Source: Nitrospirae bacterium GWC2_57_13 (lineage in GTDB: Bacteria > Nitrospirota > UBA9217). From it: a stretch of DNA of 64,000 nt. Each line of letters opens with the position of its first letter. The stretch's first letter is position 1. Under the pieces are notes generated by a model. That model was given only the letters and a program-made list of their open reading frames with translations, was not told the DNA's origin and did no database searches. This document shows positions 32,043-52,590 of this stretch, one piece after another. The position numbers were made by a program, and so were the translations under genes. The stretch covers positions 4,404-68,403 of the forward strand of contig MHDZ01000033.1 of the NCBI GenBank assembly GCA_001805055.1, read 5' to 3'.

Positions 32043-32056
32043 GAGAGCGCTCCTTT

Positions 32057-32182
32057 TCAGGCAGATAAAAAAATGGCGACTAAATATAAGATGCCGATTG
32101 AAACGGCAATGAAGAAAGTCCGCAGGTATCCCGGCTCAGGCTCGTGTTTGAGCTCCATGATCTCCTGATGGTCATTATGCAT
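32057..32182 (-). CDS. small membrane protein (41 aa), not in the supplied ORF track
   Basis: MHNDHQEIMELKHEPEPGYLRTFFIAVSIGILYLVAIFLSA. RBS GGAGGGAA 7 nt upstream. 1-nt gap to the upstream gene. Confidence 0.35.
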   Translation of the reverse strand: MHNDHQEIMELKHEPEPGYLRTFFIAVSIGILYLVAIFLSA

Positions 32183-32183
32183 C

Positions 32184-33713: not shown

Positions 33714-33721
33714 CCTTCCTC

Positions 33722-35209: not shown

Positions 35210-35556
35210 TGCATTTCATCCTCTTCCAGGGTCTTGAACCGCTTGTAAATCAGTATGGCAAGGGCGAGGGCCACGCCGAATGTGCTCACCATGACCACGA
35301 TGGCCGTCAGCATGAGCACGTGCGGCAGCGGGTTCATGTAGTGGGCCGCGTCAACAGCCTGGCCGGCCTGTATGATCGGTATAGTCGCGCCTTTTTTGGA
35401 ACCCATGGATACGAAAAAGAGTATTATCGCGGTCTGGAATATGTTCATCCCCACGAGCTTTTTGATGAGGTTCTTCTTGGCTATCATGGCATATAAGCCG
35501 ATCATCATCAGGAAGATATAGAACCAGTAATTATATTTTCCGATCACGAATTCCAT
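35206..35556 (-). CDS. Mrp antiporter subunit C (NuoK-like)
   Basis: MEFVIGKYNYWFYIFLMMIGLYAMIAKKNLIKKLVGMNIFQTAIILFF is the MnhC/MrpC signature. ATGA overlap with the upstream gene. Confidence 0.8.
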   Translation of the reverse strand: MEFVIGKYNYWFYIFLMMIGLYAMIAKKNLIKKLVGMNIFQTAIILFFVSMGSKKGATIPIIQAGQAVDAAHYMNPLPHVLMLTAIVVMVSTFGVALALAILIYKRFKTLEEDEMQ

Positions 35557-35557
35557 G

Positions 35558-36016
35558 TTATTCCACCGACCCTTCCTCGTGCTCGCCTCCGGAGGCGAGA
35601 TTGAGGAATATGGAGACCATGACCGCCATGACCGTGATCCCCACACCGATCTCTATGCCGAAGGTGCCGAGGGCCCTTGCTTTTGCAGTTCCCACCGGCA
35701 GGATCTCCGCAAGGACGCCGTAGTCAAGATAGTTTGCCCCGAGCAGCAGGCAGATAAACCCGATCCCTGCGTATATCAGCACGCCCACGCCCGTCAGGAC
35801 CGTGTTCATTTTTTCCGTCATTCTTCTTTTGACCTCAGCAATATCGTACGCGATCATACTGAGTATGAAGCTCGCCCCGAGTATGCAGCCGCCCTGGAAT
35901 CCTCCGCCGGGGCTGTAGTGGCCGTGGGCGATCACGTACAGGGCAAAAAGAAGGATAAACGGCGTCAGAAACCTGCTTACACTCTGGACTATCACATTGT
36001 CGCATTGCTTGATCAT
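35558..36016 (-). CDS. Mrp antiporter subunit B (MnhB domain)
   Basis: HGHYSPGGGFQGG MnhB motif. ATGA start/stop overlap at 36013-36016. Confidence 0.7.
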   Translation of the reverse strand: MIKQCDNVIVQSVSRFLTPFILLFALYVIAHGHYSPGGGFQGGCILGASFILSMIAYDIAEVKRRMTEKMNTVLTGVGVLIYAGIGFICLLLGANYLDYGVLAEILPVGTAKARALGTFGIEIGVGITVMAVMVSIFLNLASGGEHEEGSVE

Positions 36017-36289
36017 GATTTCTTCCCCCGTCGCAGCAGAAGTATGCACACGATCCCTGCGGTGAATATGACCGTGGTTTCTCCGAGGGTGTCATAGCCC
36101 CTGTAGTCGGCAAGCACGGACGTGACCGCATTGGGTGTCGCCGTTTCTTCAATGGTTTTTTCCAGATACCGGGGCGAAACATGGGTAGTGGCCGGAGACG
36201 CAAGGGATCCCCAGTCGGGCATCTCGTTGGTGCTGAACACGAGCAGGCCGCCGGTGATGATGACCGCAATCAGCGCGAAGATCTTCAAT
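36013..36289 (-). CDS. MnhB-N/MbhE-like small membrane subunit
   Basis: ...ADYRGYDTLGETTVIFTAGIV... is the MnhB N-terminal-domain signature. Probable TTG start at 36289 with RBS GGAGGA. Confidence 0.45.
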
Positions 36290-36530
36290 CGTTGGTCCTC
36301 CTGGTCGTCTGGAATATGGCGCCGATAAAGAAGGCGGTGCTTATGCCGGCGCCGACCGCGGCCTCGGTAAAGGCCACGTCCACGGCCCCCATTCCCGTCC
36401 AGAGCAGGCACATGAGAAAACTGTAGGCCCCGAGGATGATGGCAGAACTCAGCAGGTCCTTCACGTTAATGGCGGCTACAGCGCAGATAACGACCATGAT
36501 GAGAATGATGAAATCGAGTTGCCAGATCAT
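36285..36530 (-). CDS. DUF4040/MbhD-like small membrane subunit
   Basis: 81 aa, 3 TM. Its position in the cluster matches MbhD of Mbh-type modules. Confidence 0.5.
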   Translation of the reverse strand: MIWQLDFIILIMVVICAVAAINVKDLLSSAIILGAYSFLMCLLWTGMGAVDVAFTEAAVGAGISTAFFIGAIFQTTRRTND

Positions 36531-36865
36531 TTCTTCCCCTCCTTCATCGTCCAGGGCGCCACGCCAGCGTCGAGCGCGGCCTTGGTGATCGCATGACAGG
36601 CCGTGGGATTCGCGATAAAGATAAAAAATGCGATCAGCATGATCTTCACGCTCACCAGGAAGGCGACAAGCGTGAATCCCGCATGCAGGTTGTAAAGCGC
36701 CATGCCCGAGAGCATAAGGAACGCGCCGAGGGTGTCGCCCTTGCCCGCAGCGTGCATTCTTGTGTAGAAATCCGGAAACCGCAACATGCCTATGCTCGCT
36801 GTGAAGAAGAAAAAAGCTCCCACGATCATCAAAACCGCCGATAGGATCGATAGTGTGGTCGTCAT
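36527..36865 (-). CDS. Mrp antiporter subunit G
   Basis: FFFFTASIGMLRFPDFYTRMHAAGKGDTLG is the MnhG/PhaG signature. Confidence 0.75.
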   Translation of the reverse strand: MTTTLSILSAVLMIVGAFFFFTASIGMLRFPDFYTRMHAAGKGDTLGAFLMLSGMALYNLHAGFTLVAFLVSVKIMLIAFFIFIANPTACHAITKAALDAGVAPWTMKEGKK

Positions 36866-37170
36866 CTGCCCATCTCCCTGTCCTTAAAGGATTTCGCGCC
36901 CGGCATGATGCTTTTCCTCACCCGGAAGAATTTCGCGGCGGCAAGTGTGGCGATAAAGTTCAAGAGGGCGTAGGCCAGGGCAATATCCACGAACATGTCG
37001 ATCCGCTTGTAGATAAGCCCCATGAGGCAGAGCAGTATAGTTGTCTTGGTGCCGATGACCCCCGCGCCCACGATCCTGTCCAGTACGGTCGGGCCGTACA
37101 CCACCCGGTACAGGACTACCATGGCCAGAAGGGCCATAACAATGCTGATGCCGAGAATGAAGTCTTCCAT
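36862..37170 (-). CDS. Mrp antiporter subunit F
   Basis: VVYGPTVLDRIVGAGVIGTKTT is the MnhF signature. Confidence 0.75.
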   Translation of the reverse strand: MEDFILGISIVMALLAMVVLYRVVYGPTVLDRIVGAGVIGTKTTILLCLMGLIYKRIDMFVDIALAYALLNFIATLAAAKFFRVRKSIMPGAKSFKDREMGR

Positions 37171-37647
37171 CTACTCCTCCCCAAAGATATGGGCGATCCT
37201 CTGTTCCATATCGCTGTTCAACAGGTCCTCAGCGGTCTTTTTGCTCAGGGCATGGACATAGTATTCTCCATCCCTTATGTCCGCCGTTATCGTGCCCGGA
37301 GTGAGGGTGATGGAGTTGCCAAAAACCACGTGCGAGACATCTTTTTTAAGCGTACTTTTAAATTTCACCAGCTGGGGGTCAATGGGCATCTTTGGGTTCA
37401 GGGCAAGCTGAGCCACATGCAGGTTGGACAAGACGATCTGGTACAGGAGCCAGGGGATGTATTTCAGGAACCTGATAATCTCTTGAAACGCATAGGGATG
37501 GATTTCGCGCCTGAATATGAGGTCGTGGGTCATAAAAGTCACTAGTGCGGACGAGATGATCCCCAGCGAGAGATGAAAGGCGTCGAATATACCTGACCAG
37601 ACCATCCAAAGCGTAAAAAGCGCGGCAAAGAGAATGAGGTATTTCAT
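37171..37647 (-). CDS. Mrp antiporter subunit E
   Basis: MnhE motifs including ITLTPGT. Start at MKYLILF. Confidence 0.7.
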   Translation of the reverse strand: MKYLILFAALFTLWMVWSGIFDAFHLSLGIISSALVTFMTHDLIFRREIHPYAFQEIIRFLKYIPWLLYQIVLSNLHVAQLALNPKMPIDPQLVKFKSTLKKDVSHVVFGNSITLTPGTITADIRDGEYYVHALSKKTAEDLLNSDMEQRIAHIFGEE

Positions 37648-37728
37648 GTTTGTTTCTCCTGATCGGGCCTTCCTGGATTCCCCTTCCCTGTATGAGAGGG
37701 CCATAAAAGACAAGGCTAAGCCATGACG

Positions 37729-38403: not shown

Positions 38404-38432
38404 TTGACATTTTTTTGTGATTCAACATAATA
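38404..38432 (+). promoter_or_regulatory. putative sigma70 promoter of hemL
   Basis: TTGACA, a 17-nt spacer, then ATAATA. Confidence 0.45.
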
Positions 38433-38510: not shown

Positions 38511-39794
38511 ATGGCAGGGCCCAGGTCAAAAAAGCTTTTTGCAGAGGCGAAAAAGCATATTCCCGGTGGCGTGAACAGCCCGGTACGGGCCTTCCGTTCC
38601 GTCGGCGGTGAGCCGCTCTTCATCAAGAAGGCAAAGGGTTCCAAGATAACCGACGCGGACGGGAAGGAATACATCGATTACGTTCTGTCCTGGGGGCCCA
38701 TGATCGTGGGCCATGCCCATCCCGCGGTGACAGCGGCCCTTCGGAAGGCCGTTGCCGACGGTACGAGCTTTGGCGCGCCGACCGAGCTTGAGGTGACGCT
38801 GGCGAAGCTGGTCAAAAAGGCGTATCCGTCCGTTGAGATGCTGCGCATGGTCAGCTCGGGAACGGAAGCGACCATGAGCGCGATCCGCGCGGCACGGGGG
38901 TATACGGGCAGGGACAAGATCCTGAAGTTCGACGGCTGCTACCACGGCCATGCCGACAGCCTGCTCGTGAAGGCAGGCAGCGGCGTCGCCACCTTCGGAC
39001 TTCCTGACAGCCCCGGCGTGCCGGCTGACCTGGCAAAGCTTACCCTCACGGTTGCCTTCAACGATCTGGCCGCCGTGCAGGAAATCACGGCCCGCGAGGG
39101 AGCACAGATCGCCTGCATCATTGTCGAACCCGTTGCCGGCAATATGGGGTGCGTACCCCCGGAGGCTGGTTTTCTCGAAGGCCTTCGCGAGGTATGCGAC
39201 CGGCACGGCATCGTGCTCATCTTTGACGAGGTCATGACGGGCTTCCGCGTGGCCTTTGGCGGCGCCCAGCAACGGTACAATATCACGCCTGACCTTACCT
39301 GTCTGGGGAAAGTGATCGGCGGAGGCCTGCCTGTGGGCGCCTATGGCGGCAAACATGCGATCATGGAAAGGATCGCTCCGATCGGTCCCGTCTACCAGGC
39401 CGGGACCCTGTCGGGCAATCCCATCGCCATGACAGCGGGGATCGAGACACTTAAACTGCTCTCCAGGCCCGGCGTATACCGGACCCTGGAGACGCTTTCG
39501 GCCGAGCTTGAAGAGGGGCTGACGCAGGCGGCCAGGGGTGCAGGCCTGCCGGTCACGATCAATCGCGTGGGATCCATGTTCACGGCCTTTTTCACGGACC
39601 GGAAGGTGCGGGATTTTGCCAGCGCCAAGACGTCCGATGCGGCGCGTTTCGGCAGGTTCTTCCAGTCCATGCTGAAGCAGGGTGTGAACCTTGCCCCTTC
39701 CCAGTTCGAGGCCGCCTTCCTGTCCCTGGCCCATACGCGGGCGGACATCGCAAAGACGATCGAAGCGGCCCGGAAGAGCATGCGGGGGCTTTAG
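38511..39794 (+). CDS. hemL: glutamate-1-semialdehyde 2,1-aminomutase
   Basis: [17 protein letters not shown]-terminus. Class III aminotransferase PLP site. Confidence 0.9.
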
Positions 39795-39921
39795 TTTTTT
39801 ATCACAGGGGTTGCAGGTAGACTCTGGAAGGTGAGGCGCTATGAAGTTGAGAAGTTGGGAGGATAGGAAGATGAGAATCAAGACCTCCCATCTTCATACC
39901 TTCTTATCTTCTTAACTTCGT

Positions 39922-40173
39922 GTGTTTTCTATGGAAGAGAAGGATAGAAAGGTATGGCGCCTTATCGGCGCGCTGAGCACCGTGGGTATCACGCTTGTGG
40001 CCGCCCTGGTGATCGGTTTTTACATAGGGCTCAAGCTTGATGAATATTTCGGCACCTCACCGTGGCTGACGATCGTATTCCTCATTCTTGGCATCATCGC
40101 GGGCTTCAAGAACCTCGTCACCCTGTCGAGAAGGATCGAGGAATTGGACAACGACAAGGATAAAAAGGACTGA
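39922..40173 (+). CDS. AtpZ-like small membrane protein (ATP-synthase gene-1 family)
   Basis: Two TM helices with LGxxxxGxxLD...SPWLTIVFLILG, typical of AtpZ. No ATP synthase genes are adjacent. Confidence 0.5.
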   Translation: MFSMEEKDRKVWRLIGALSTVGITLVAALVIGFYIGLKLDEYFGTSPWLTIVFLILGIIAGFKNLVTLSRRIEELDNDKDKKD

Positions 40174-40607
40174 TGGAGACGGACAAGGGTTCTCTGCATG
40201 CAACAGCAACGGCCATCGTCCGAAAGATGGCGTTTAAAACAGGGGGGCTTACCGCCCTGGCGGCTCTGGGAGTCGCGGTGTTCAGCGCTGTTGCCGGCGA
40301 AACCGAACGTTGGTGGTTCATTCCGGCAAGCATCCTCTTCGGCGGAGCGCTGGGAGTACTGAATTTCCGCTGGCTTGCCCAGACCGTCGAACGGATCTAT
40401 GTCAAGCCGGGGATGACGCGGACAGCGGCACAGATCGCCGGCATGGTGCTGACAGTGCTGAAGCTTTCCGCTATTTTCCTTATTCTCTTCGTCGTGATCA
40501 AATGGCGGCTGCTGCATCTCTTCGGCCTCGTAGCCGGCCTGTCGCTCAGCTTTGTCGCTATTTTGTGGGATGGATTTCTGACGATGCTCGGCCTGCGCCG
40601 GACCTAG
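40173..40607 (+). CDS. AtpI-like 4-TM membrane protein
   Basis: 144 aa, four TM helices. It follows the AtpZ-like gene with an overlapping stop/start, as in atpZ-atpI pairs. Confidence 0.4.
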   Translation: METDKGSLHATATAIVRKMAFKTGGLTALAALGVAVFSAVAGETERWWFIPASILFGGALGVLNFRWLAQTVERIYVKPGMTRTAAQIAGMVLTVLKLSAIFLILFVVIKWRLLHLFGLVAGLSLSFVAILWDGFLTMLGLRRT

Positions 40608-40678
40608 GAACTGTGCAGGTCCGTAGCCGGCGTGGCCTCGATCATCGCGCGCACTCATTTCAGGGGAGGAAGTGGCAC

Positions 40679-41152
40679 ATGAAAAATCACGTTCTGCGGC
40701 CGCTGTACGCCGTGCTCATGATCGTGACGCTCATCCTGGCGGCCAGGATCTTCCTGGTTCCGAAGGACTTCGGCATACAAGAACGGGGGTACATGTATGG
40801 CTGGCACCGCAAGTCCAATGAAGAGGACTGGAAAAAGGTTTCCGTGAAATACCAGGGCAAGGAATACTGCAAGGACTGCCACGGAGCGAATTACGACAGC
40901 ATCGCCAAAACCCCCCACAAGAACATCCAGTGCGAGAATTGCCACGGCCCGGCAATAGAGCATCCCAGCGATCCCCCAAAGCTTACTATCGACCGCAGCA
41001 GACAGCAGTGCCTTCGATGCCATTTTCCGCTTCCTTACCCCACGAGCGGACGATCGAAGATCCGGGGCATCGATCCGGAGACGCACAATCCCGACATGGA
41101 ATGCTCCATGTGCCACAATCCCCACCATCCCAGTCTGGAGGGCATGCGATGA
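40679..41152 (+). CDS. membrane-anchored tetraheme cytochrome c (module 1)
   Basis: N-terminal TM. CKDCH, CENCH, CLRCH and CSMCH heme sites. Confidence 0.8.
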   Translation: MKNHVLRPLYAVLMIVTLILAARIFLVPKDFGIQERGYMYGWHRKSNEEDWKKVSVKYQGKEYCKDCHGANYDSIAKTPHKNIQCENCHGPAIEHPSDPPKLTIDRSRQQCLRCHFPLPYPTSGRSKIRGIDPETHNPDMECSMCHNPHHPSLEGMR

Positions 41153-41937
41153 CTACTCGACGGGACTTTATCAAGAAAACCATCATTACCGTCGCCGGTG
41201 CGGCCCTGCCCCTGACGGCCTTCGAGCTCCTCGATCCGAAGAAGCTTTTTGCCCAGGTTGCGGCGGAGAAGACCAGAGTGCGGTGGGCGTTCCTTATCGA
41301 CACCTATAAATGCGTGGGCTGCGGCTACTGCGTCAAGGCCTGCAAGCTCGAGAACGAGGTGCCCTACGAGGCAAATGCAACCCGCACCTGGGTCGAGCGC
41401 TACGTGCTGACCAAGGACGGCAAGTTCCTGGCCGACAGCCCCAAGGGCGCCCGCGACGGCTATACGACCTCGAAGATCGACCTCGGACTCGGCAACTACG
41501 AAGAAGTGAAGAACAACAACATCGAGAAGGCCTACTTCGTGCCGAAGCTCTGCAACCAGTGTGAGAATCCGCCCTGCGTGCAGGTCTGCCCTGTTGGCGC
41601 CACCTACCAGGCGCCCGACGGCGTAGTGCTCGTTGACCGCTCGTGGTGCATCGGCTGCGGCTACTGCATCATGGCATGCCCCTACGGCGTGCGATTTTTC
41701 CACCCCGTGCACCACACGGCGGAGAAATGCAACTACTGCTACCACCGCATCACCAAGGGCATGAAGACGGCCTGCGTGGACGCCTGCCCCTTCGGCGCAC
41801 GCCAGATAGGAAATATCAAGGACCCCAACGACCCGGTCACGAAGATCATCAGGACCCAGCGCGTCGCCGTGCTGAAGAGCGAATACGGGACGAAACCCCA
41901 GGCCTTCTACATCGGCCTGGACGAGGAGGTGCGGTAA
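41149..41937 (+). CDS. Tat-exported 4x[4Fe-4S] ferredoxin subunit (NrfC/PsrB/DsrO-like) (module 1)
   Basis: RRDF twin-arginine motif. Four CxxCxxC...CP cluster motifs. ATGA overlap with the cytochrome gene. Confidence 0.85.
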   Translation: MTTRRDFIKKTIITVAGAALPLTAFELLDPKKLFAQVAAEKTRVRWAFLIDTYKCVGCGYCVKACKLENEVPYEANATRTWVERYVLTKDGKFLADSPKGARDGYTTSKIDLGLGNYEEVKNNNIEKAYFVPKLCNQCENPPCVQVCPVGATYQAPDGVVLVDRSWCIGCGYCIMACPYGVRFFHPVHHTAEKCNYCYHRITKGMKTACVDACPFGARQIGNIKDPNDPVTKIIRTQRVAVLKSEYGTKPQAFYIGLDEEVR

Positions 41938-43190
41938 TGGTACATGGCGAGCTCTGGACCCTGAAGGAACTGTTCGTCCTGCCCAACGAGTACATCTACT
42001 GGAGCGTCCAGATCGTGATGTATCCCTTCATGACCGGTCTCGTGGCCGGGGCCTTCGTGCTCTCGTCGCTCTACCACGTCTTCGGCATCGAGAAGCTCAA
42101 GGACATGGCGCGGTTCGCCCTGGTGTTCTCGTTCGCGCTCCTGTTTGCGGCGCCGATGCCCATTGTGCTCCATTTGCAGTTTCCCTTCCGGGGCATTAAT
42201 GTATTCATGACGCCGCACTTCACCTCGGCCATCGCGGCTTTCGGCATTGTGTTCTTCACCTACGGCGCCATCGTCGCCTCGGAGCTCTGGTTCCTGTACC
42301 GGAAGCATTTCGTTGAGGTCGCTCTCAGGCTTCGCGAGAAGCAGGACAAGACGATGATGGAGTGGTTCTCGTATCTCATTTTCTGTTCCCTTACCCTGGG
42401 CGTCTATGACGTGAGCGAGGAATCCCTGCATCGCGACGAGAAAGCCATCAAGTTCCTGGCCGCACTCGGCATCCCCGTGGCCTGTTTCCTCCACGGCTAC
42501 GCCGGGTTCATTTTCGGGTCCGTGAAGGCGAATGCGCTCTGGATGACGCCGCTCATGCCGGTCATCTTCATCATGTCCGCGATCGTGTCGGGCATCGCAC
42601 TCTGCATGCTCACCTACATCGTGACCATGGAGATCCGCAAGTTCCTGGCCAAGCGGAAGCGCACCACCTATGGTGTCTACCAGACAACGGATCAGATCCG
42701 GAGCGTCGAGATCAACGTGATCCAGATGACCGCCAAGTACCTGCTGTACTTCATGGTCTTCGCCATCAGCCTCGAGGTGCTGGACCTCATCTTCCGCGGA
42801 TATACGGCCGTCAAGTCATGGGACGTGCTGCGCAGCGTTATCTACGGCAAGGACTTCACGAGCATCTTCATCCTGCAGTACGCCATCGGGAACCTGATCC
42901 CGCTCATCCTGCTCCTGACGCCGGGGCTGACCCTGCGCAGGACCCTGCTCGGCGTGCTGCTCGTGCTCTTCGGTGTGTTCATGATGCGTTGGAACGTGGT
43001 GATCGGCGGACAGGCTTTCTCCCTCACCTTTGCGGGATACATGCACTATCACTTGCCGATCGTGCCGCACTCCATGGAGACGTTCAAGGAAGGGCTCTTC
43101 GGCGCGCTCAGCATCTTCATCATGCCCTTTGTGCTGTTCTATTTCATCAGCAAGATATTTCCGGTCTTCGAGTACAAGGAAGCCCATTGA
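41937..43190 (+). CDS. NrfD/PsrC-family integral membrane quinone-interacting subunit (module 1)
   Basis: ~417 aa with about 10 TM helices. TAATG overlap with the FeS gene. Confidence 0.8.
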   Translation: MVHGELWTLKELFVLPNEYIYWSVQIVMYPFMTGLVAGAFVLSSLYHVFGIEKLKDMARFALVFSFALLFAAPMPIVLHLQFPFRGINVFMTPHFTSAIAAFGIVFFTYGAIVASELWFLYRKHFVEVALRLREKQDKTMMEWFSYLIFCSLTLGVYDVSEESLHRDEKAIKFLAALGIPVACFLHGYAGFIFGSVKANALWMTPLMPVIFIMSAIVSGIALCMLTYIVTMEIRKFLAKRKRTTYGVYQTTDQIRSVEINVIQMTAKYLLYFMVFAISLEVLDLIFRGYTAVKSWDVLRSVIYGKDFTSIFILQYAIGNLIPLILLLTPGLTLRRTLLGVLLVLFGVFMMRWNVVIGGQAFSLTFAGYMHYHLPIVPHSMETFKEGLFGALSIFIMPFVLFYFISKIFPVFEYKEAH

Positions 43191-43221
43191 CGGCCGCGCT
43201 TCCCAGGGAGGTGGTGATCCC

Positions 43222-43737
43222 ATGAAGAAGACGATCATGACGCTCCTGATGCTCTTCGGGCTGCTCCTCTCCGCTGCTACGGCTGCGGTTCGCGCCGATA
43301 CGCACGAACCCGACGTCCCGAAGAAGTTATTTGTTCCTCCCCCGCCTTTCACGCCGGGGATCTATCCCTGCTCCCAATGCCACGCAGGCATGCCTGTAGA
43401 CCGTAATCCACGGAAGCTCCAGGGCATGCATGACAACATTGCGTTGAAGCACATGCCGGGAGGCTGGTGCTTCGACTGCCACAACCCGAACAACCGTGAC
43501 ACCCTCCGGCTGGCGAACGGCAAGATCGTACGCTTCGAAGAGTCCTATAACCTCTGCGGCCAGTGCCACGGCACCATTCTTCGCGAATGGAAGGCCGGCC
43601 TGCACGGCAAGCGCACGGGCATGTGGAACGGCGAGAAGCAGTACCTGCTCTGTGTGCACTGCCACTGGCCCCATGATCCGAAGTTCAAGCCAATTCAGCC
43701 ACTGCCGCCCCCGGTGCGGCCGTCGGACATCAAGTAG
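43222..43737 (+). CDS. secreted tetraheme cytochrome c (module 2)
   Basis: Signal peptide. CSQCH, CFDCH, CGQCH and CVHCH heme sites. Confidence 0.8.
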   Translation: MKKTIMTLLMLFGLLLSAATAAVRADTHEPDVPKKLFVPPPPFTPGIYPCSQCHAGMPVDRNPRKLQGMHDNIALKHMPGGWCFDCHNPNNRDTLRLANGKIVRFEESYNLCGQCHGTILREWKAGLHGKRTGMWNGEKQYLLCVHCHWPHDPKFKPIQPLPPPVRPSDIK

Positions 43738-43761
43738 CGTCCTGACGCAGCGAGGTACGCC

Positions 43762-44688
43762 ATGCAAGACAAAAAGACACCAGAACGCAGCATTCAGCGG
43801 AGGACCTTTCTGAAAGGCGCGGCGCTCGGCCTGGCCGCCACGGCGCTTCCCTCGCGGGACGCCGAGGCCTCGATCTGGGAGGCCTTTTTTCAGAAGCACT
43901 TCCGAGAGATGAGCGAGGCAGAGATCAGGAAGGTGATCGGGAGGCTTGAGCAGGAATACGAGCAAAAGTACAAAAAAAAGATAACCGTCGGCATTGAGAA
44001 GCCCCTGCCCGGCGTGCTCTTCGGCTACGGTCTCGACCTTTCCCGGTGCATCGGCTGCCGCCGGTGCGTCTACGGATGCGTTGACGAGAACAACCAGTCC
44101 AAGGACCCGCAGATCCACTGGATCACCGTGCTCCGGTTCAAGAAGGGCGAGAAGTGGGTGGACCTGGAAGAATCGGAGAAGTACTACAATCCCTCTGCGG
44201 TCCCGGAGGAGGAGTATTTTTACATGCCGGTCCAGTGCCAGCAGTGCGAGAATCCGCCCTGCGTGCGTGTCTGCCCCACCCAGGCCACATGGAAGGACGA
44301 GGACGGCATCGTGGTGATCGACTACAACTGGTGCATCGGCTGCCGATACTGCATGGCGGCCTGCCCCTACGGCGCACGCCGGTTCAACTGGACCGACCCC
44401 GGACGGAAGACCGAGGAGCTCAACACCGAGACCCACTACCTGGGCAATCGCCCCCGGTTCAAGGGCGTGGTCGAAAAATGCACCTTCTGCATCCAGAGAA
44501 CGCGCAAGGAACCCGGACGGTATCCGGCCTGCGTGGAGGCATGCCCCGTGGGTGCGCGGAAATTCGGCAACCTGCTCGACCCCATGAGCGAGATCCGGTA
44601 CGCGATCGAGCATAAACGGGTCTTCCGCCTGAAGGAGGACCTGAACACCAATCCCAAGTTCTATTACTTCTTTGCCTACGGCGGGTGA
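43762..44688 (+). CDS. Tat-exported 4x[4Fe-4S] ferredoxin subunit (NrfC/DsrO-like) (module 2)
   Basis: RRTFLKG twin-arginine motif. Four Cys clusters, including CQQCENPPCVRVCP. Confidence 0.85.
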   Translation: MQDKKTPERSIQRRTFLKGAALGLAATALPSRDAEASIWEAFFQKHFREMSEAEIRKVIGRLEQEYEQKYKKKITVGIEKPLPGVLFGYGLDLSRCIGCRRCVYGCVDENNQSKDPQIHWITVLRFKKGEKWVDLEESEKYYNPSAVPEEEYFYMPVQCQQCENPPCVRVCPTQATWKDEDGIVVIDYNWCIGCRYCMAACPYGARRFNWTDPGRKTEELNTETHYLGNRPRFKGVVEKCTFCIQRTRKEPGRYPACVEACPVGARKFGNLLDPMSEIRYAIEHKRVFRLKEDLNTNPKFYYFFAYGG

Positions 44689-44702
44689 GGGGGAGGACGG
44701 TC

Positions 44703-45944
44703 ATGAAAAACCTGATCAGGAACTTTTTCATCGCCGGCAGGCAGGTATTGATCGGCGACAAGACCTATTATGCGTGGATCGCCTTCCTGTCGGTCTTCAT
44801 CCTGCTCGGCCTGAGCGCCTATGTGGACCAGTTGCACCGCGGCCTTATCACCACGGCCATGCGCGACCAGGCCTCGTGGGGCCTCTATATCTCTAATTTT
44901 ACCTTTCTGGTGGGTGTGGCCGCAGCGGCCGTGCTGCTCGTGATCCCGGCGTACCTGTACAATTTCAAGCCTATCAAGGAGATCGTGCTCTTCGGCGAGC
45001 TGCTGGCAATCACGGCCATTATCATGTGCATCCTCTTTATCATGGTGGACATGGGCCGGCCCCTGCGGGTCTGGCATATCCTTCCGTTCATCGGTTCCAT
45101 GCACTTTCCCTCGTCCCTCCTGGCCTGGGACGTGGTGGTGCTGAACGGGTACCTGGCGATCAACACGATCATCGTGTTCTACGTGCTCTACCAGCTCTCC
45201 ATCGGAAAGGAGTACAAGATGTCGGTCATCGGGCCGCTCATCATCCTTTCGATTCCCTGGGCGGTCAGCATCCATACGGTGACGGCCTTCCTCTACAACG
45301 GCCTGTCCGCCCGGCCCTTCTGGAACGCATCGATCCTGGCGCCTCGCTTTCTGGCCTCGGCATTCTGCTCAGGACCGGCCATCATGCTGATCCTGTTCCA
45401 ACTCATCCGGAAGAAGTCCGACGTGGAGATCGACGACCGCGCCATCTTCAAGATCGCCGAGCTGATCGCCTACGCCATGGGGCTCAATCTGTTCCTGCTC
45501 GGCGCCGAAGCCTTCAAGGAGTTTTATTCCGGTACCATCCATTCCTACCCCATCGAGTATCTCTACTTCGGCCTGCACGGAAAGACCGCCCTCGTTCCGT
45601 GGATCTGGTCGGCGACGATCCTGAACATCACCGCATTTTTCCTGTTCCTGTTCCCCCGGACGCGGGAGAACTTTACGACTCTGAACATTGGATGCATTTT
45701 CGTCATCATCGGTGTCTACATCGAAAAGGGCATGGGGCTGATCGTTCCCGGGTTCGTACCCGATACGCTCGGCGAGATATACGAATACATTCCCACGACG
45801 TCCGAGATAGTGATCACCATGGGCATCTGGGCTTTGGGTGCGATGCTCTATACAGTTCTGCTGAAATTCGCCGTCCCCATATATACGGGTAAGCTTCGGT
45901 TCGAGATGAAGGAACAGAAGAGCTATAAAGCATCCCCGTCGTGA
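44703..45944 (+). CDS. NrfD-family integral membrane subunit (module 2)
   Basis: ~413 aa polytopic membrane protein, a paralogue of the 41937 gene. RBS GGGGGAGGA upstream. Confidence 0.8.
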   Translation: MKNLIRNFFIAGRQVLIGDKTYYAWIAFLSVFILLGLSAYVDQLHRGLITTAMRDQASWGLYISNFTFLVGVAAAAVLLVIPAYLYNFKPIKEIVLFGELLAITAIIMCILFIMVDMGRPLRVWHILPFIGSMHFPSSLLAWDVVVLNGYLAINTIIVFYVLYQLSIGKEYKMSVIGPLIILSIPWAVSIHTVTAFLYNGLSARPFWNASILAPRFLASAFCSGPAIMLILFQLIRKKSDVEIDDRAIFKIAELIAYAMGLNLFLLGAEAFKEFYSGTIHSYPIEYLYFGLHGKTALVPWIWSATILNITAFFLFLFPRTRENFTTLNIGCIFVIIGVYIEKGMGLIVPGFVPDTLGEIYEYIPTTSEIVITMGIWALGAMLYTVLLKFAVPIYTGKLRFEMKEQKSYKASPS

Positions 45945-45983: not shown

Positions 45984-46021
45984 AAAAAAAGGAGCAACGG
46001 CCAGCCGTTGCTCCTTTTTTC
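45984..46021. terminator. bidirectional rho-independent terminator
   Basis: A-run, then GGAGCAACGG-CCAG-CCGTTGCTCC, then T-run. It lies between convergent genes. Confidence 0.65.
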
Positions 46022-46039: not shown

Positions 46040-46894
46040 TTACTCTTTTGGCGTCTTGGACAGCAGCAGCATGACTACGCCCATGCCGCTTACCAGCAAC
46101 ATCAGGAAACCTGAGAAGTTTTTCCGCGAGCGAAGGTCCGCGAAGGTCCCTGAGATCCCCTTCTCGATATCGTCAAGCTTACGCGTGTACTCGCCGGTAC
46201 GCTCCTTGACGAGGTTTACATCCACGGTGTGAAAGAGCGTCCGGAACTCGGCCTGGGTGCTGAAGAACGCCTGTTCCTGCTCTTCCGGATAGATGCCCGC
46301 CCGGCGGAGCGCCTTGATGCCGTCCTCGATCTCGGTGATCTTCTTTTCAACGAGGAACATGGCCTGTTTCATATCTTGTGCCCTGCCATAGGTATGGCAC
46401 TTTGAGCAGCGCTGTTCGCTGATGATCTCGATGTTCGCCTTCTGGATATTATGGGAGCCGTGGCAAACAACGCAGTGCGGGCCCTTCCCCGATGTTCTGA
46501 GGGCCTTTCCATGACCGCTTTCATTGAAGTACCTCAAAATGCCGACGTGGCACCTGCCGCACAGATCGGGGATCTTGGCGTAGGGCGGGACTCCGATGAA
46601 GCCGCGCTGCTGATGGGACATGGCCAAAGACGGGTCTTTCGGATCACCGCCGTGGCAGTCGTGGCAGGTAATATCGTTCTGCGCGTGCCAGCTTTTTCTC
46701 CATTCATCGACGATCTCACGGAACACAGGCTTCATTCGCTCCGACGCGTGGCAGTCGATGCAGGCATTCTCCTCGATCCGTTCCCCCGACCAGGTCTTTG
46801 ACATGAACTCGCGGGCGAAATCCTCCCGATAACCGGCGGAGGAGATGCCCGGGAGACCGGCGATCAGCAGCAGGGACAGTACCAGTGAACGCAT
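46040..46894 (-). CDS. pentaheme cytochrome c with C-terminal membrane anchor (bc-complex associated)
   Basis: Signal peptide. CIDCH, CHDCH, CGRCH, CVVCH and CSKCH heme sites. C-terminal TM. Start overlaps the cytochrome b stop (ATGA). Confidence 0.8.
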   Translation of the reverse strand: MRSLVLSLLLIAGLPGISSAGYREDFAREFMSKTWSGERIEENACIDCHASERMKPVFREIVDEWRKSWHAQNDITCHDCHGGDPKDPSLAMSHQQRGFIGVPPYAKIPDLCGRCHVGILRYFNESGHGKALRTSGKGPHCVVCHGSHNIQKANIEIISEQRCSKCHTYGRAQDMKQAMFLVEKKITEIEDGIKALRRAGIYPEEQEQAFFSTQAEFRTLFHTVDVNLVKERTGEYTRKLDDIEKGISGTFADLRSRKNFSGFLMLLVSGMGVVMLLLSKTPKE

Positions 46895-47994
46895 CACGAC
46901 CTCCCCCAGAACATGAGGATCACCCATAGCGCGAAAGCGGCGAGGAACATGCCGCGCAGGAACGGCCTCTTCATGATGTTCTTTTCTTTTTCCGTGTCGA
47001 AGAAGGGCCAGAACAGGAACAGAACGAAGAGTGCGACCTGGATGATCACACCCAGGAACTTGTTGGGAATGATCTTGAGCATCTGGTACGGCGCGAGCAG
47101 ATACCACTCGGGCCGAATGCTCGCCGGCGTCCGGTAGGGGTCCGCCGGCATCGTCGCATCCCCGGGGAAGAAGAGGTTCGGCGCAAAGGTTATCAGGAAG
47201 AACATAACGGCCAGATAGACCATCACCATGAAAAGGTCCTTCTGGAAGAACCGGGGATAGTACGGATAGCCGTCGGGATGGTTCTTCTTGTGGTACTCTG
47301 TCCACGGCCGCTTCTCTTCCGCGGACAGTCCAAAGGGTGTCCCCGAGATGCCGATACGCTTGGTCAGGAACAGGTGGAGCCCCAGGAGCATCAGGAAAAT
47401 GGGGGGGAGGATCGAAATATGGAAGGCAAAGAACCTGCTGAGCGTCGCTCCCGTAACCGACTCGCCGCCCCGCAGGACGTTGGCGACGAGATCACCCATA
47501 TAAGGTACGGCTGTCGGAATGGCGGTCGCAACGGTCGTCGCCCAGTAGCTCAACTGGGTCCAGGGAAGCAGATACCCGCTGAACCCGAAGGCGACGGATA
47601 CGAAGAGGAGAAGCGCGCCGACGATCCAGGTAAGCTCCCGCGGCCGCTTGTAGTTTCCCATGAGGAAAACCGTCAGCATGTGCGCGAAGACGACCCCGAT
47701 CAGCAGGTTGCTGCCCATGACGTGCATCTGGCGGAACAGCCAGCCGAAGGGAACCTTGTTCATGATGCCCTGCACGCTCTGGAAGGCGTGGTCAGGATGG
47801 GGAACATAGTAGATGAGAAGGAGGATGCCCGTGATCACCTGGATCAGATACCCCGCGATGGTGACGACTCCCAGGGTATAGAAGATATTGATATTTTTCG
47901 GCACCCGGTATGCGCGGACCTCCTCTTCAACAAGGTCATTGATTCCGATCCGGACGTCGAGCCAGTTCCTCACACGATCCCACATAGTTTTCAC
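46894..47994 (-). CDS. cytochrome b of a second Rieske/cytochrome b complex
   Basis: Cytochrome b N- and C-terminal motifs (conserved bis-His helices, PEWY-like). 366 aa. Confidence 0.85.
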   Translation of the reverse strand: MKTMWDRVRNWLDVRIGINDLVEEEVRAYRVPKNINIFYTLGVVTIAGYLIQVITGILLLIYYVPHPDHAFQSVQGIMNKVPFGWLFRQMHVMGSNLLIGVVFAHMLTVFLMGNYKRPRELTWIVGALLLFVSVAFGFSGYLLPWTQLSYWATTVATAIPTAVPYMGDLVANVLRGGESVTGATLSRFFAFHISILPPIFLMLLGLHLFLTKRIGISGTPFGLSAEEKRPWTEYHKKNHPDGYPYYPRFFQKDLFMVMVYLAVMFFLITFAPNLFFPGDATMPADPYRTPASIRPEWYLLAPYQMLKIIPNKFLGVIIQVALFVLFLFWPFFDTEKEKNIMKRPFLRGMFLAAFALWVILMFWGRS

Positions 47995-48404
47995 CCGATC
48001 ACGATATTTTCGCCGTCGACCCTGAGCGGCAGGACCGGAAGGGGTTTCGGCGGTGGTCCGGAGATAACATGCCCATCAAGATCGAAGGTGCCCGCATGGC
48101 ATGGACAGAGTAGTTGACGGTTCTCTTTATCATAGTGGACGAGACAGCCGAGATGGGTACAGACGCGCGAGAGGGCGATCAGCCCCTTCCCGGGACGGTT
48201 TACGACGACCGCGGGGACATCGTTGAACACGATCTCCTTCGCGTATCCCAGGGGGATGTCGCGTTTCGCAATGACGAGTGTCCGGGCCTTTTCAGCCGTT
48301 CCGGGCGGGACGAGATAGCGGACGAGAGGGTAGAGCAGGGAGGCCAGCGTGGTGATGCCAAGGGCCGACAGTAACAATTGGAGAAAGCTGCGCCTCTTCA
48401 TCAC
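47991..48404 (-). CDS. Rieske [2Fe-2S] protein (second copy)
   Basis: RRSFLQ Tat motif. CTHLGC...CPCHAGTF Rieske boxes. Confidence 0.85.
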   Translation of the reverse strand: MMKRRSFLQLLLSALGITTLASLLYPLVRYLVPPGTAEKARTLVIAKRDIPLGYAKEIVFNDVPAVVVNRPGKGLIALSRVCTHLGCLVHYDKENRQLLCPCHAGTFDLDGHVISGPPPKPLPVLPLRVDGENIVIG

Positions 48405-48818: not shown

Positions 48819-49847
48819 ATGAAATTCATTCGCAGGCTGTGGGAGAAGGGACGTGGTGCGTTCAGCGCGGTCCTGGAAAAGCTCCGCGGGCCGCTTTCGC
48901 TCAAGGCGAAGCTGCTCATTCTGACGCTATTGACGGTGATCGTCGCGGGCGGCGGCACCATCTCGTATCTGTTCTATGATTTTACCCAGAACAACCCGAA
49001 ATTCTGCGTCAGCTGTCACTTGATGCAGCCGGCCTATGACACCTGGGCGAAGAGCGAACACAAAGGCCTGAACTGCCACGACTGTCACCATCTGTCGATC
49101 CCGGAGCAGAACCAGCTGCTGATCAGTTTCGTTCTGCGCCGTCCGGACGACGTTCCGGACCGTCACGGGAAGGTCATCGCCGGACTGTCGAAGTTCTGCA
49201 ACGAGTGCCACACGGAAGGGAAGGGGAAGAAGATCAACAGATCACTCTTCCACGCGAAGCACGTGTACATGGAACAGCTTGAATGCACCATGTGCCATGG
49301 CGAGGTCAAGACGGACAAGTCGGGGCTGCATTCATTTCTCCCGACGGAAAAGTTCTGTGTCAAGTGCCACAGCGGCAAGCAAGTGCATGGCGAGGGCATG
49401 GGCGGCCTGGCCTGCCTGAATTGCCATACGGACCGCACCAAGGACCTGAAGCCGGGCAGGAGAAAATGCCTCTACTGCCACAGCTCGGACCAGGGCGTTC
49501 GCGAGATTCTTGAAGAGGGCGGGACCATTGACGTCCGGCATTTCACGCCTGATCCGTCCGTGGTCAAGCGGGCCACGAAGATCGTCTATTCCGATAAGGC
49601 GCCCATGCAGTTCTACTGCTATGAATGCCATCAGGCGCATACGCCGGGCAAGGCCCGGCCGACAACGACGGACTGCCTGAAATGCCACAGCAAGATCCGG
49701 TCAGTCGGGAAGCACAAAATGCACTTGAACATGGACATGAAATGCCAGGATTGCCACAAGCCGCACATCTGGACGGTGACGGAAGCGTCGGCCCGCAAGG
49801 ACTGCGTTGCTTGCCACGAGTATAAAAGTCCGAAGGCGTTCCTTTAG
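48819..49847 (+). CDS. membrane-anchored multiheme cytochrome c with 11 CxxCH motifs
   Basis: N-terminal TM. Heme sites CVSCH, CHDCH, CNECH, CTMCH, CVKCH, CLNCH, CLYCH, CYECH, CLKCH, CQDCH and CVACH. Possible promoter TTGACA at 48735. Confidence 0.8.
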   Translation: MKFIRRLWEKGRGAFSAVLEKLRGPLSLKAKLLILTLLTVIVAGGGTISYLFYDFTQNNPKFCVSCHLMQPAYDTWAKSEHKGLNCHDCHHLSIPEQNQLLISFVLRRPDDVPDRHGKVIAGLSKFCNECHTEGKGKKINRSLFHAKHVYMEQLECTMCHGEVKTDKSGLHSFLPTEKFCVKCHSGKQVHGEGMGGLACLNCHTDRTKDLKPGRRKCLYCHSSDQGVREILEEGGTIDVRHFTPDPSVVKRATKIVYSDKAPMQFYCYECHQAHTPGKARPTTTDCLKCHSKIRSVGKHKMHLNMDMKCQDCHKPHIWTVTEASARKDCVACHEYKSPKAFL

Positions 49848-49984
49848 TGTCGTAAGGGCGACCATGGTCGCCCTTCTTGAGGGGGTGGGCATGCCCCCCC
49901 TGATCGTTCGGCGCGTCTTTTTGCCGGTGATAGCGTTTAGTACAGGAGAATTGCATTCCATCGACGAAAGGAGGTGAATCCTGA

Positions 49985-50308
49985 ATGAAGAAATTTTTTG
50001 TGATCGCGTTGGTTGTTGCAGTAACGGTAGTCCTGGCAGCGTCGGCGTTCGCGGTTGGTCCGGGCAAGACTGTTGAATGGGACGGCAAGGGCGCGGGCAA
50101 GGTCGTGTTCGACGGCAAGGTCCATGCTGATAAGGGCTCCAAATGCGCGGATTGCCATCAGTCCGGTCTCTTCAAGATGAAGAAGGGTAGCGATACCCTG
50201 ACCATGAAGGACATGGAAGCTGGCAAGAACTGCGGTGCCTGCCACAACGGCACCAAGGCTTTCGGCGTGAAGGACGCAGCTACCTGCGCCAAGTGCCACA
50301 CGAAGTAG
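49985..50308 (+). CDS. periplasmic triheme cytochrome c7 (PpcA-like)
   Basis: Signal peptide, then a ~83-aa mature protein with CADCH, CGACH and CAKCH and a Lys-rich sequence typical of the c7 family. Confidence 0.75.
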   Translation: MKKFFVIALVVAVTVVLAASAFAVGPGKTVEWDGKGAGKVVFDGKVHADKGSKCADCHQSGLFKMKKGSDTLTMKDMEAGKNCGACHNGTKAFGVKDAATCAKCHTK

Positions 50309-50368: not shown

Positions 50369-50467
50369 TGGCGGGAGAGCATGAGAATCGAACTCACCTT
50401 CCCCAGCGCAGGCTGAGGAACAACGGATTTGAAGTCCGGGACGGGCACCAGCTCCGTACGCTCTCCC
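50369..50467 (-). tRNA. selC: tRNA-Sec (anticodon UCA), CCA encoded
   Basis: Folded by hand from GGGAGAGCGTACGGAGCTGGTGCCCGTCCCGGACTTCAAATCCGTTGTTCCTCAGCCTGCGCTGGGGAAGGTGAGTTCGATTCTCATGCTCTCCCGCCA. It has an 8-bp acceptor stem, the anticodon arm GGACUUCAAAUCC shared with E. coli selC, a long variable arm and a GTTCGATTC T-loop. Confidence 0.85.
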
Positions 50468-50607: not shown

Positions 50608-52590
50608 TCACGCGTCTTTACCGCTCATGAGATTGTGCGCCGCATCCAGTTCGTTGTGCGCGCCGAGCAGAACAAGAATGTCCCCTGCTTTGAGCCGAAA
50701 GTCCGGGCCGGGATTTGTGATGGCCTTTCCATTTCTCGCCACGGCGATGATGGTCGCCCCCGTGGCGTTCCGGATATCAAGCTCCCGCAGGCTTCTGTCA
50801 GCGGACGGTGATCCTTCCGGGACCTGAAAATTATCAACCGTGGAGCCTCCGAAAAGGGCGGCAATGCGTCCGATATTCTCCTGTTCCAGCGATATGCCGC
50901 GCAGCATTTTATACCCCTCGAAGCGGATCAGGCTTATCTGGTTCGCGATCACGTTTGCGGGGATGTGATATTGGTGCAGGACGCGCGAGAAAATCTCGAT
51001 CGATGTTTCGAACTCCTCGGGGATCACCTGGTCGGCGCCGAGCTTGTAGAGGCCATCGACCTCCAGGGAGTACCGCGTGCGGACCAGGATGAAGATCGTG
51101 CCGTTGAGCTGCCGGGCCAGCCGCACGGAGATGCGCGTGGCCGCATAATCGGAGATGGCGAATACGATGGCCTTGGCGCAGTCGATCCCCGCACGCCTGA
51201 GCACATCTGGCCGGGTGATGTCGCCGTAAATGATCGGCTCTCCCTCGCTTCGCGCCGTCCGGATGGTATCGGCATTCACTTCAAGGATCACATAGGGGAT
51301 GTGTGTGGCCTTCAGCGTTCTGGCCAGATTTCGGCCGTTGATGCCGTAGCCCGCAATGATGGTGTGTCCTGCCAGAGAGCAGGTATCGCCCTGAGGCTGG
51401 ACCGGCCGCAGGCCGAAGGGCAGACGGTCGACAAGCCAGGGGCTGAACTGGATGACAAAGGGCGTTGCCAGCATGCTCATGATGGACGCAGTGATAAAGG
51501 TCTGGAACAGGTCGCCGCTGATCAGCCCCTTCGCCTGCCCCTGCTGTGCCAGCAGGAAGGCGAATTCTCCGATCTGCGCCAGGCCGAGTCCGGCGAGCAG
51601 GGCGCTGCGGATAGGATAGCGGAGCGCCTTCGCGGTGATGATGACGATAGCGGCCTTGACGAAGACAAGCAGGGCTGTCAGGGTCAGCAGCCACACCCAG
51701 TGAGCGACGAAATAGTTGATCACCAGCAGCATGCCGATGGAGATGAAAAAAATGCTCGAAAAATAGTCCCGGAAGGGGATGATGTCAGCCACGACATGAT
51801 GGCTGTATTCGGATTCTGATATGATCAGCCCCGCCAGAAAGGCGCCCAGGGCAAGGGACAGGCCGAGACGATAGGTGACCCAGGCGGTACCCAGGCAGAT
51901 CAGTACGATCAGCAGAAAGAACATCTCCCGGTTCTTGAGGCGGATCACCTGGTGCAGGAGCGAGGGGACAACCTTGCGGGCGATAAAAAAGACGGCAACA
52001 ACACCGGCAGCCGAGGTTCCGAGCGTGGTCAGAACTGAGACGGCCGTAACGGTTCCGGCGGCGCTTGCCTGGCCCAGCACAGGAAGCAGAAGCATCATCG
52101 GCACAACGGCAATGTCCTGGAACAGAAGTATCCCCGTGGCAAGCCTGCCGTGGGCCGAGTCGATCTCGACGCGGTCAGCGTACATTTTGAGGACAATGGC
52201 CGTGCTGCTGAGAGAGGCAAGAAAGCCGAAGAACACGGCCTGCGGGACGGGAAAACCAAGAAAGAGGGAGATGCCGGTGGCGACAGCGATGGTCATGAGC
52301 ACCTGGACGGCGCCGCCGATCAGAAACTGCCTGCCTGAGCGGATGATGTCGGTCAGAGAGAATTCGATGCCCACCGTGAACAGCAGCAGCACCACGCCGA
52401 TCTCGGCGAGGCGTTCAACTATGCTCATTTCGGTGATGAAAGCCGCGCCGTGGGGGCCGATGACCACGCCGGTGATCAGGAATCCCACAATGGCCGGTAG
52501 CTTCATCTTATGAAAAATGAAGGTGATGGGGAGCGATACAGCCAGCAGGATAATAAGTTCCCGTAGTATGATTATCTCGTGTTCGGGCAT
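50608..52590 (-). CDS. CPA2-family K+/H+ (monovalent cation:proton) antiporter with TrkA-N/TrkA-C (RCK) domains
   Basis: ~13 TM Na_H exchanger domain, then IIAGYGINGRNLA-type Rossmann RCK domains. 660 aa. Confidence 0.85.
   Translation of the reverse strand: MPEHEIIILRELIILLAVSLPITFIFHKMKLPAIVGFLITGVVIGPHGAAFITEMSIVERLAEIGVVLLLFTVGIEFSLTDIIRSGRQFLIGGAVQVLMTIAVATGISLFLGFPVPQAVFFGFLASLSSTAIVLKMYADRVEIDSAHGRLATGILLFQDIAVVPMMLLLPVLGQASAAGTVTAVSVLTTLGTSAAGVVAVFFIARKVVPSLLHQVIRLKNREMFFLLIVLICLGTAWVTYRLGLSLALGAFLAGLIISESEYSHHVVADIIPFRDYFSSIFFISIGMLLVINYFVAHWVWLLTLTALLVFVKAAIVIITAKALRYPIRSALLAGLGLAQIGEFAFLLAQQGQAKGLISGDLFQTFITASIMSMLATPFVIQFSPWLVDRLPFGLRPVQPQGDTCSLAGHTIIAGYGINGRNLARTLKATHIPYVILEVNADTIRTARSEGEPIIYGDITRPDVLRRAGIDCAKAIVFAISDYAATRISVRLARQLNGTIFILVRTRYSLEVDGLYKLGADQVIPEEFETSIEIFSRVLHQYHIPANVIANQISLIRFEGYKMLRGISLEQENIGRIAALFGGSTVDNFQVPEGSPSADRSLRELDIRNATGATIIAVARNGKAITNPGPDFRLKAGDILVLLGAHNELDAAHNLMSGKDA

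Follow-up and report, generated by a model that had tools for sequence, protein, structure and literature searches.

A putative Cbc4-type electron-transfer module beside orphan atpZ and atpI genes, and an independent DsrOP-like cassette, in a Nitrospirota genome

The window analysed here is a stretch of 64,000 nucleotides (nt) from Nitrospirae bacterium GWC2_57_13 (contig MHDZ01000033.1, positions 4,404 to 68,403), which contains eight co-oriented genes between 39.9 and 45.9 kb whose junctions are short or overlapping. Two genes for small membrane proteins resembling AtpZ and AtpI are followed by two modules of three genes each, coding for a tetrahaem cytochrome c, a ferredoxin exported through the twin-arginine translocation (Tat) pathway, and an NrfD-family membrane subunit (cyt1-FeS1-NrfD1 in module 1 and cyt2-FeS2-NrfD2 in module 2). 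The reading proposed here joins three elements: module 1 would be a complex of the Cbc4 type, module 2 an independently acquired cassette, and atpZ and atpI would be genes orphaned by the break-up of an ATP synthase operon. The probability of this joint reading is put at about 0.6. The original prediction had placed the eight genes correctly, and all of their coordinates were confirmed; it took the modules as tandem paralogues devoid of a catalytic subunit, and the small pair as possibly recruited to them.

The first gene of module 1, cyt1 (40679-41152, + strand), codes for a CbcS-like cytochrome with four CxxCH motifs and an N-terminal transmembrane anchor at residues 9-27, and matches the cytochrome c3/c7/paired-CXXCH families of Pfam. 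The product of FeS1 (41149-41937, +), an NrfC/TtrB/DsrO-like protein, carries the twin-arginine motif RRDF, 16 cysteines arranged as four cluster motifs, and a PF13247 match of 86 bits. Its top NCBIfam matches, TtrB (202 bits, cut-off 416) and DsrO (187 bits, cut-off 200), are both below cut-off. NrfD1 (41937-43190, +) is an integral membrane subunit that matches PF03916 with 117 bits and has no CxxCH motif; like NrfD2, it shows 9-10 hydrophobic helices. No named NCBIfam equivalog scores above its cut-off with NrfD1, the DsrP model NF045798 giving just 26 bits, and a sequence search of the PDB returned no match for NrfD1 and no significant match for the cytochromes. The start/stop overlaps claimed for this module, ATGA between cyt1 and FeS1 and TAATG between FeS1 and NrfD1, are present.

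With respect to function, module 1 would be a quinone:cytochrome c oxidoreductase of the Cbc4/CbcSTU type that needs no catalytic subunit. NrfD1 would exchange electrons with menaquinone or menaquinol, and the four FeS clusters of FeS1 would link it to the anchored tetrahaem cyt1, which would in turn exchange electrons with periplasmic multihaem cytochromes. Possible partners are the products of two neighbouring genes: an 11-haem, membrane-anchored NapC/NirT-like cytochrome (48819-49847, +; 11 CxxCH motifs) and a PpcA-like trihaem cytochrome c7 (49985-50308, +; 3 CxxCH motifs), with Pfam matches to PF03264, PF14537 and PF14522 across 48819-50308. Genes for both neighbour module 1 in the two gene orders described below. 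In this scheme cyt1 would stand in for the catalytic subunit and, since a cytochrome replaces it, none would be missing from module 1. The absence of a catalytic subunit, presented originally as an anomaly, is not one, because module 1 shares the Cbc4/CbcSTU architecture. We infer the direction and the partners of electron flow, as well as ion translocation by the NrfD subunits, an activity proposed for this family in PMC8076601.

Species-representative genomes were scanned with an alignment of NrfD1, and the best 80 of 565 relatives, all at least 73% identical, were kept; nearly all of them are labelled Nitrospirota or Thermodesulfovibrionia. NrfD1 identity across these 80 species genomes is 73-94%. 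Module 1 is found without module 2 in L013 and L015, and a bare cyt1-FeS1-NrfD1 triplet lies among unrelated genes in L083, L085, L087 and L095, which suggests a self-contained mobile unit, or a mixed bin. L087 and L095 are different contigs of the metagenome-assembled genome (MAG) MFD05942.bin.2.29, labelled Actinomycetes, each with one copy of the triplet.

The two small genes upstream of module 1 encode members of the expected families. The atpZ-like gene (39931-40173, +, with an ATG start and an alternative GTG at 39922) codes for 80 residues and matches PF09527 with 67 bits (gathering score 26.6, E = 1.5e-18); on TIGR02230, a hypothetical equivalog of NCBIfam, it scores 26.7 bits (cut-off 46.7). 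The AtpZ signature G..LD....T.PW is present as IGFYIGLKLDEYFGTSPWLT, and transmembrane segments are predicted at residues 11-29 and 40-58; the motif LGxxxGxxLD...SPWLT originally ascribed to this protein was recovered. Its stop codon overlaps the start of the atpI-like gene as TGATG. The latter gene (40173-40607, +) codes for 144 residues with four hydrophobic segments by hydropathy, and the gene after it is cyt1, not atpB. On PF03899 the AtpI-like protein scores 31.2 bits, not far above the gathering score of 25.1, and a search of NCBIfam gave no match for it. In type B relatives (see below) AtpI scores 27.1-27.7 bits on PF03899. Among the 128 AtpI-like homologues listed, every one is at least 44% identical and most carry PF03899. 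The profile searches of PF09527 and PF03899 on which the family assignment was to be judged are thus passed by both small proteins.

A search of 1.84 billion representative proteins gave 2877 AtpZ matches forming a continuous range of similarity, many of them 40-55% identical to the window protein. A distinct subfamily of module-linked AtpZ was considered and rejected, as these 2877 representatives show no separate clade. The nearest representative (61% identity) also sits in a type A context. The window AtpZ shares 49-50% identity with the canonical AtpZ of atpZ-atpI-atpB-atpE (atpZIBE) operons; type A AtpZ is marginally nearer to the canonical proteins (49%) than to those of type B (44%). 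Judged by sequence, AtpZ and AtpI are genuine, ordinary members of their families, encoded at an unusual site. One representative protein, P0170, is an AtpZ-AtpI fusion of 231 residues and is probably an artefact of assembly or of a frameshift. A role of AtpZ in Mg2+ acquisition or ATP synthase function is known only from the genetics of Bacillus pseudofirmus.

The genes that usually accompany this pair are not found at the locus. A search in six frames for the arginine motif of the ATP synthase a-subunit and the RQPE loop of the c-subunit gave nothing credible in the window or in 95 related loci, and neither atpB nor atpE is present within 10 kb past the right end of the window. The possibility that ATP synthase genes are hidden nearby was rejected after this motif search and the 10-kb walk, and the absence of such genes claimed originally is confirmed for the window.

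Synteny among the relatives was mapped by tblastn and jackhmmer. The original prediction looked to co-occurrence across genomes: of about 66 informative species-level loci, 49 have atpZ-atpI next to module 1, arranged in one of two gene orders. In type A, which comprises 22 loci and the window, the order is hemL-atpZ-atpI-cyt1-FeS1-NrfD1-[module 2 + bc]-11-haem cytochrome-c7, where bc is an operon for a Rieske protein, cytochrome b and a pentahaem cytochrome c. Its median atpI-cyt1 gap is 60 nt. Type B (27 loci) reads hemL-11-haem cytochrome-cyt1-FeS1-NrfD1-[module 2 + bc]-(TorD-like)-atpZ-atpI, with the 11-haem cytochrome gene directly 5' of cyt1. In five type B loci (L045, L073, L076, L080 and L088) the start of atpZ lies at -13 to +27 nt relative to the stop codon of NrfD1. 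Fifteen type B loci contain a gene for a TorD-like chaperone (PF02613, NarJ/TorD family, 73-80 bits; for instance L039:1624-2142 and L023:9371-9910), which neither the window nor the type A loci possess. This gene stays with atpZ-atpI even where module 2 and the bc operon part them from module 1, and atpZ begins within about 20 nt after it in 13 of the 15 loci, the other two stopping at a contig edge. The genes 3' of atpI in type B are variable, unrelated housekeeping genes, and a conserved partner gene at that position was therefore rejected.

No pair was detected in 31 loci. About half of them end at contig edges, and 17 with adequate flanks are truly devoid of it; these fall in at least two clades of a midpoint-rooted neighbour-joining tree of NrfD1. 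Type A forms a single block in the same tree, with one outlier (L068), and hemL, which codes for glutamate-1-semialdehyde aminomutase (38511-39794, +, 427 residues, PF00202), is distinctly more similar to the window gene in type A (79-87% identity) than elsewhere (63-68%). Therefore, one rearrangement can explain type A. Since hemL is kept beside the cluster about as faithfully as atpZ and atpI, gene order seems to be conserved in general here and not for the pair in particular.

The origin of this arrangement is suggested by the genomic context of the closest relatives that do not belong to the clade (MAGs with the labels Deltaproteobacteria, Methylomirabilota and Terriglobia, together with unlabelled metagenome contigs). 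In all five outgroup contexts the order is atpZ-atpI-atpB-atpE, and in three of the five a NirDL-like gene and hemL are located directly upstream. The hemL gene of the window shares 59-60% identity with those upstream of atpZIBE in L096 and L097. An atpZIBE operon has also been described for Geobacteraceae and Pelobacter. The hemL-atpZ-atpI of the window is therefore most simply explained as an operon remnant. The ancestral arrangement would have been hemL-atpZ-atpI-atpB-atpE; atpB-atpE would have left the locus in this lineage of Thermodesulfovibrionia, and the cytochrome genes would have come to lie in or beside the remnant. Presumably, atpZ and atpI continue to work for the ATP synthase in trans. 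In four of the five outgroup operons (L096, L097, L098 and L101) a Rex-like gene (Put_DNA-bind_N and CoA_binding domains) follows atpE, and in L096 the atpE call appears fused to it (282 residues).

Several observations weigh against this reading. The pair stays beside module 1 in two gene orders and in 49 species genomes, and AtpI has diverged to about 30% identity between type A and type B. The type B spacing of atpZ, whether from NrfD1 or after the TorD-like gene, looks like that of co-transcribed genes, and the type A gap between atpI and cyt1 contains no predicted terminator. Finally, the homology of module 1 with CbcSTU rests on architecture and on two short primer-derived fragments.

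By analogy with the role proposed for AtpI in the stability and assembly of ATP synthase, AtpZ and AtpI might have been recruited to module 1, or might moonlight there, as insertion/assembly factors or small subunits of a Cbc4-type complex, with or without the TorD-like Tat chaperone at their side. We consider this rather unlikely, though it accounts for the adjacency of the pair and module 1 in both gene orders across a class-level radiation, for the operon-like spacing (overlap or at most 27 nt after NrfD1 in the five loci named above), for the fact that, in 13 of the 15 loci with the PF02613 chaperone gene, the pair comes immediately after it, for the absence of atpB/atpE motifs from all 95 loci searched, and for the fact that only variable housekeeping genes follow atpI in type B. 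No paper naming both 'AtpZ' and 'NrfD' was found, and the association of AtpZ-AtpI with an NrfD module seems undescribed in the literature found. However, hemL-atpZ-atpI is synteny inherited from canonical atpZIBE operons, and hemL, a gene with no module-specific connection, has been kept beside it equally well. Module 1 is also found where atpZ-atpI are not nearby, in 17 informative genomes (a quarter) and in the stand-alone triplets. In type B, many genomes have module 2 and the bc operon, the latter on the opposite strand, inserted between module 1 and the pair. Type A being one clade bar L068, the two orders may reflect one rearrangement, and the AtpZ sequences are those of ordinary family members and not of a divergent subfamily. 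If recruitment were true, these ATP synthase helpers would, for the first time, be seen to work for another membrane complex; AtpI and AtpZ would then be general helpers for the insertion of polytopic ion-translocating subunits, and a second client complex would give a genetic handle on their poorly defined functions.

The lack of a catalytic gene bears on another explanation, in which the modules are beta/gamma parts of standard reductases of the Psr/Ttr/Nrf/Mcc type whose catalytic subunit is encoded elsewhere in the genome. TtrB is the best match of FeS1, FeS2 resembles DsrO, QrcC and ArrB, and NrfD-family subunits usually anchor catalytic subunits, according to PMC8076601. Nevertheless, every named equivalog save DsrP scores below its cut-off, the triplet is also found as a compact stand-alone unit, and the cytochrome gene of each module is translationally coupled to, or closely 5' of, its FeS gene, as in Cbc4, which has no catalytic subunit. 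In agreement with the original claim, no molybdopterin, Hdr or other reductase gene was called within about 10 kb. The annotation spanned +/-8-10 kb around the window, its near-identical strains and three relatives; for the 80 species loci, the comparison was limited to the window proteins. This explanation is considered improbable. The window derives from Rifle groundwater Nitrospirota MAGs, and near-identical strains keep its gene order. In one of these strains (L008, 8165-9976) NrfD1 and cyt2 were called as a single open reading frame of 603 residues, probably an artefact of assembly or of a frameshift.

Module 2 begins with cyt2 (43222-43737, +), whose product carries four CxxCH motifs and, at its N-terminus, a hydrophobic stretch that by eye resembles a signal peptide; no DsrJ-type match was found for it in NCBIfam at E < 0.01. 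FeS2 (43762-44688, +) codes for a DsrO-like ferredoxin with an RRTF motif and a PF13247 match; PF10518 falls just under its cut-off (22.6 vs 22.7 bits), and the score on the DsrO model of NCBIfam is 189.8 bits (cut-off 200). NrfD2 (44703-45944, +), a DsrP-like subunit of 10 helices, scores 426 bits on the DsrP model NF045798 (cut-off 350) and 129 bits on PF03916, and its search against PDB sequences gave only weak matches to ActC of alternative complex III (ACIII). The original description of the subunits of both modules thus largely stands: cyt1 and cyt2 are 4-haem cytochromes by their motifs, both membrane subunits belong to the NrfD family by PF03916, and both ferredoxins have Tat signals and 16 cysteines. 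The four cluster motifs were found in FeS1, whereas in FeS2, whose cysteines would suffice for as many clusters, the scan recognised three.

What was not borne out is the view of the two modules as tandem paralogues. They share an architecture and are anciently divergent: cyt1 and cyt2 are 21% identical, FeS1 and FeS2 are 33% identical, and only one segment of 51 residues aligns between NrfD1 and NrfD2, with 27% identity. Among the relatives, the genes of module 2 occur as a block or not at all. These low identities, together with the block-wise distribution, indicate that the modules are two different complexes and not tandem paralogues. A recent tandem duplication was rejected on the same values and because module 2 is missing from many relatives.

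Most complete module-2 loci, in both gene orders, also contain the bc operon, which in the window is located at 46040-48404 on the - strand (PF00355 for the Rieske protein, PF00033/PF00032 for cytochrome b, and 5 CxxCH motifs in the cytochrome c). Module 2 without this operon was found in L041 and L086. Module 2, with its DsrO/DsrP-like subunits, would be an independently acquired cassette travelling with the Rieske/cytochrome b/pentahaem cytochrome c operon. It may constitute a second quinone:cytochrome c unit, of DsrOP-like descent and functionally tied to the Rieske/cytochrome b complex. A second pair of genes for a Rieske protein (179 residues) and a cytochrome b (447 residues) lies at 28039-29884 (+), so that the window encodes two such complexes.

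That module 2 is instead a DsrJOP variant of dissimilatory sulfur metabolism, with DsrMK encoded elsewhere and a tetrahaem cytochrome replacing the trihaem DsrJ, is doubtful: the scores of NrfD2 on DsrP and of FeS2 on DsrO point to it, as do the labels of some cluster-bearing MAGs, Candidatus Sulfobium (L053) and Dissulfurispiraceae (L094), names associated with sulfur metabolism, but neither dsrM nor dsrK is adjacent here or at related module-2 loci, cyt2, with its four CxxCH motifs instead of three, lacks a DsrJ-type match, and most complete module-2 loci are linked to the Rieske/cytochrome b operon and not to dsr genes.

Some non-coding signals accompany the cluster. Downstream of NrfD2, at 45991-46021, a GC-rich hairpin read from the sequence lies between an A-run and a T-run; it reads GGAGCAACGG-CCAG-CCGTTGCTCC, followed by TTTTTT, and is likely a bidirectional terminator serving both the operon on the + strand and the bc operon that converges on it. 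The promoter-like site that ranks best in the region (38404-38431, 11/12 match) is 5' of hemL. The spacer of 141 nt between hemL and atpZ (39795-39935, +) can fold into a long imperfect hairpin of about 45 bp (minimum free energy -48.3 kcal/mol, z = -3.2, none of 200 shuffles equally stable), whose 5' arm is purine-rich and whose 3' arm is pyrimidine-rich. The same spacer in several type A relatives (L014, L024, L035, L043, L047, L049 and L063) forms hairpins alike in composition and non-conserved in sequence. This element may act as a terminator, a processing site or a stabiliser.

Further genes surround the cluster. A scan of the whole window with Rfam detected tRNA-Sec alone (RF01852, 66 bits; 50373-50467, -) and no riboswitch in the cluster. 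The tRNA gene is beside selB and selA (52641-56133, -), and a gene for a KefB-like cation/H+ exchanger (50608-52590) is located between the cytochrome genes and selB. A complete operon for a multisubunit cation/proton antiporter of the Mrp/Mnh type (30020-37713, -) lies divergently upstream of hemL. Its position is specific to this species; the relatives carry tatA/tatC/mobB at that site instead and, therefore, the proximity of the antiporter to atpZ/atpI is not conserved.

Different known systems share parts of this locus. NrfABCD/NrfBCD, complex iron-sulfur molybdoenzymes (CISM) such as Psr and Ttr, and ACIII/Qrc have in common with both modules an NrfC-type ferredoxin with four clusters and an NrfD-family core that interacts with quinones. 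However, NrfA, molybdopterin and ActB-type subunits were not found here; with respect to CISM of the Psr/Ttr/Arr type, no molybdopterin gene was called in the window region, the near-identical strains or the three relatives. Their cytochromes also differ, NrfB and ActA being pentahaem and QrcA hexahaem, whereas cyt1 and cyt2 are tetrahaem. On the NrfC equivalog FeS1 and FeS2 score 159 and 130 bits (vs 378), and on the NrfD equivalog the membrane subunits score 30 and 27 bits (vs 348).

DsrMKJOP is similar to module 2 in having a periplasmic cytochrome c, a Tat-exported ferredoxin of the DsrO type, and a DsrP-like NrfD subunit of 10 helices. NrfD2 passes the DsrP cut-off, and both FeS2 and FeS1 narrowly miss the DsrO cut-off of 200 bits (189.8 and 187). 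Nevertheless, neither DsrM (dihaem b) nor DsrK (HdrD-like) was called within about 10 kb here or at related module-2 loci, the tetrahaem cyt2 is not recognised as the trihaem DsrJ, and module 2 is linked instead to the Rieske/cytochrome b operon.

The atpZ-atpI-atpB-atpE operon, an F0 leader operon of Desulfobacterota/Geobacteraceae and others, has the same Pfam families, the same gene overlap and the same upstream hemL as the window, but atpB and atpE are missing here, and module genes follow atpI (type A) or precede atpZ (type B). If the reading of the pair as an operon remnant holds, the locus documents the dismantling of the atpZIBE operon in one lineage.

The closest counterpart of module 1 is Cbc4 of Geobacter sulfurreducens (GSU0068-GSU0070), composed of a tetrahaem CbcS anchored in the membrane by about 29 N-terminal residues, CbcT carrying four [4Fe-4S] clusters, and the cofactor-free integral membrane protein CbcU. 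Cbc4 has been proposed to oxidise menaquinol and to pass electrons to trihaem cytochromes of the PpcA type. Module 1 likewise consists of an anchored tetrahaem cytochrome, a four-cluster protein and a haem-free membrane subunit encoded third in the operon, and neither system has a catalytic subunit. The PpcA-like c7 gene near module 1 parallels the proposed PpcA partner. Two fragments of CbcS, DFGVHE (from residue 30) and RTKAYC (59-64), derived from primers given in a preprint supplement, align with DFGIQE (30-35) and QGKEYC (59-64) of cyt1, a collinearity that supports homology between cyt1 and CbcS without proving it. In the window, module 1 is flanked by atpZ/atpI, hemL and the 11-haem cytochrome gene.

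Both modules can be described as NrfC/NrfD-based complexes ending in a cytochrome, module 1 being closest to Cbc4 and module 2 to DsrOP. Groundwater Thermodesulfovibrionia would carry Cbc4-like modules together with an 11-haem cytochrome, a PpcA-like c7 and, optionally, a DsrOP-like/Rieske/cytochrome b cassette, knowledge that helps to predict electron transfer in the periplasm or outside the cell in this widespread class. The comparison links a large gene family of Thermodesulfovibrionia to Geobacter Cbc4 and provides that complex with many relatives for comparison.

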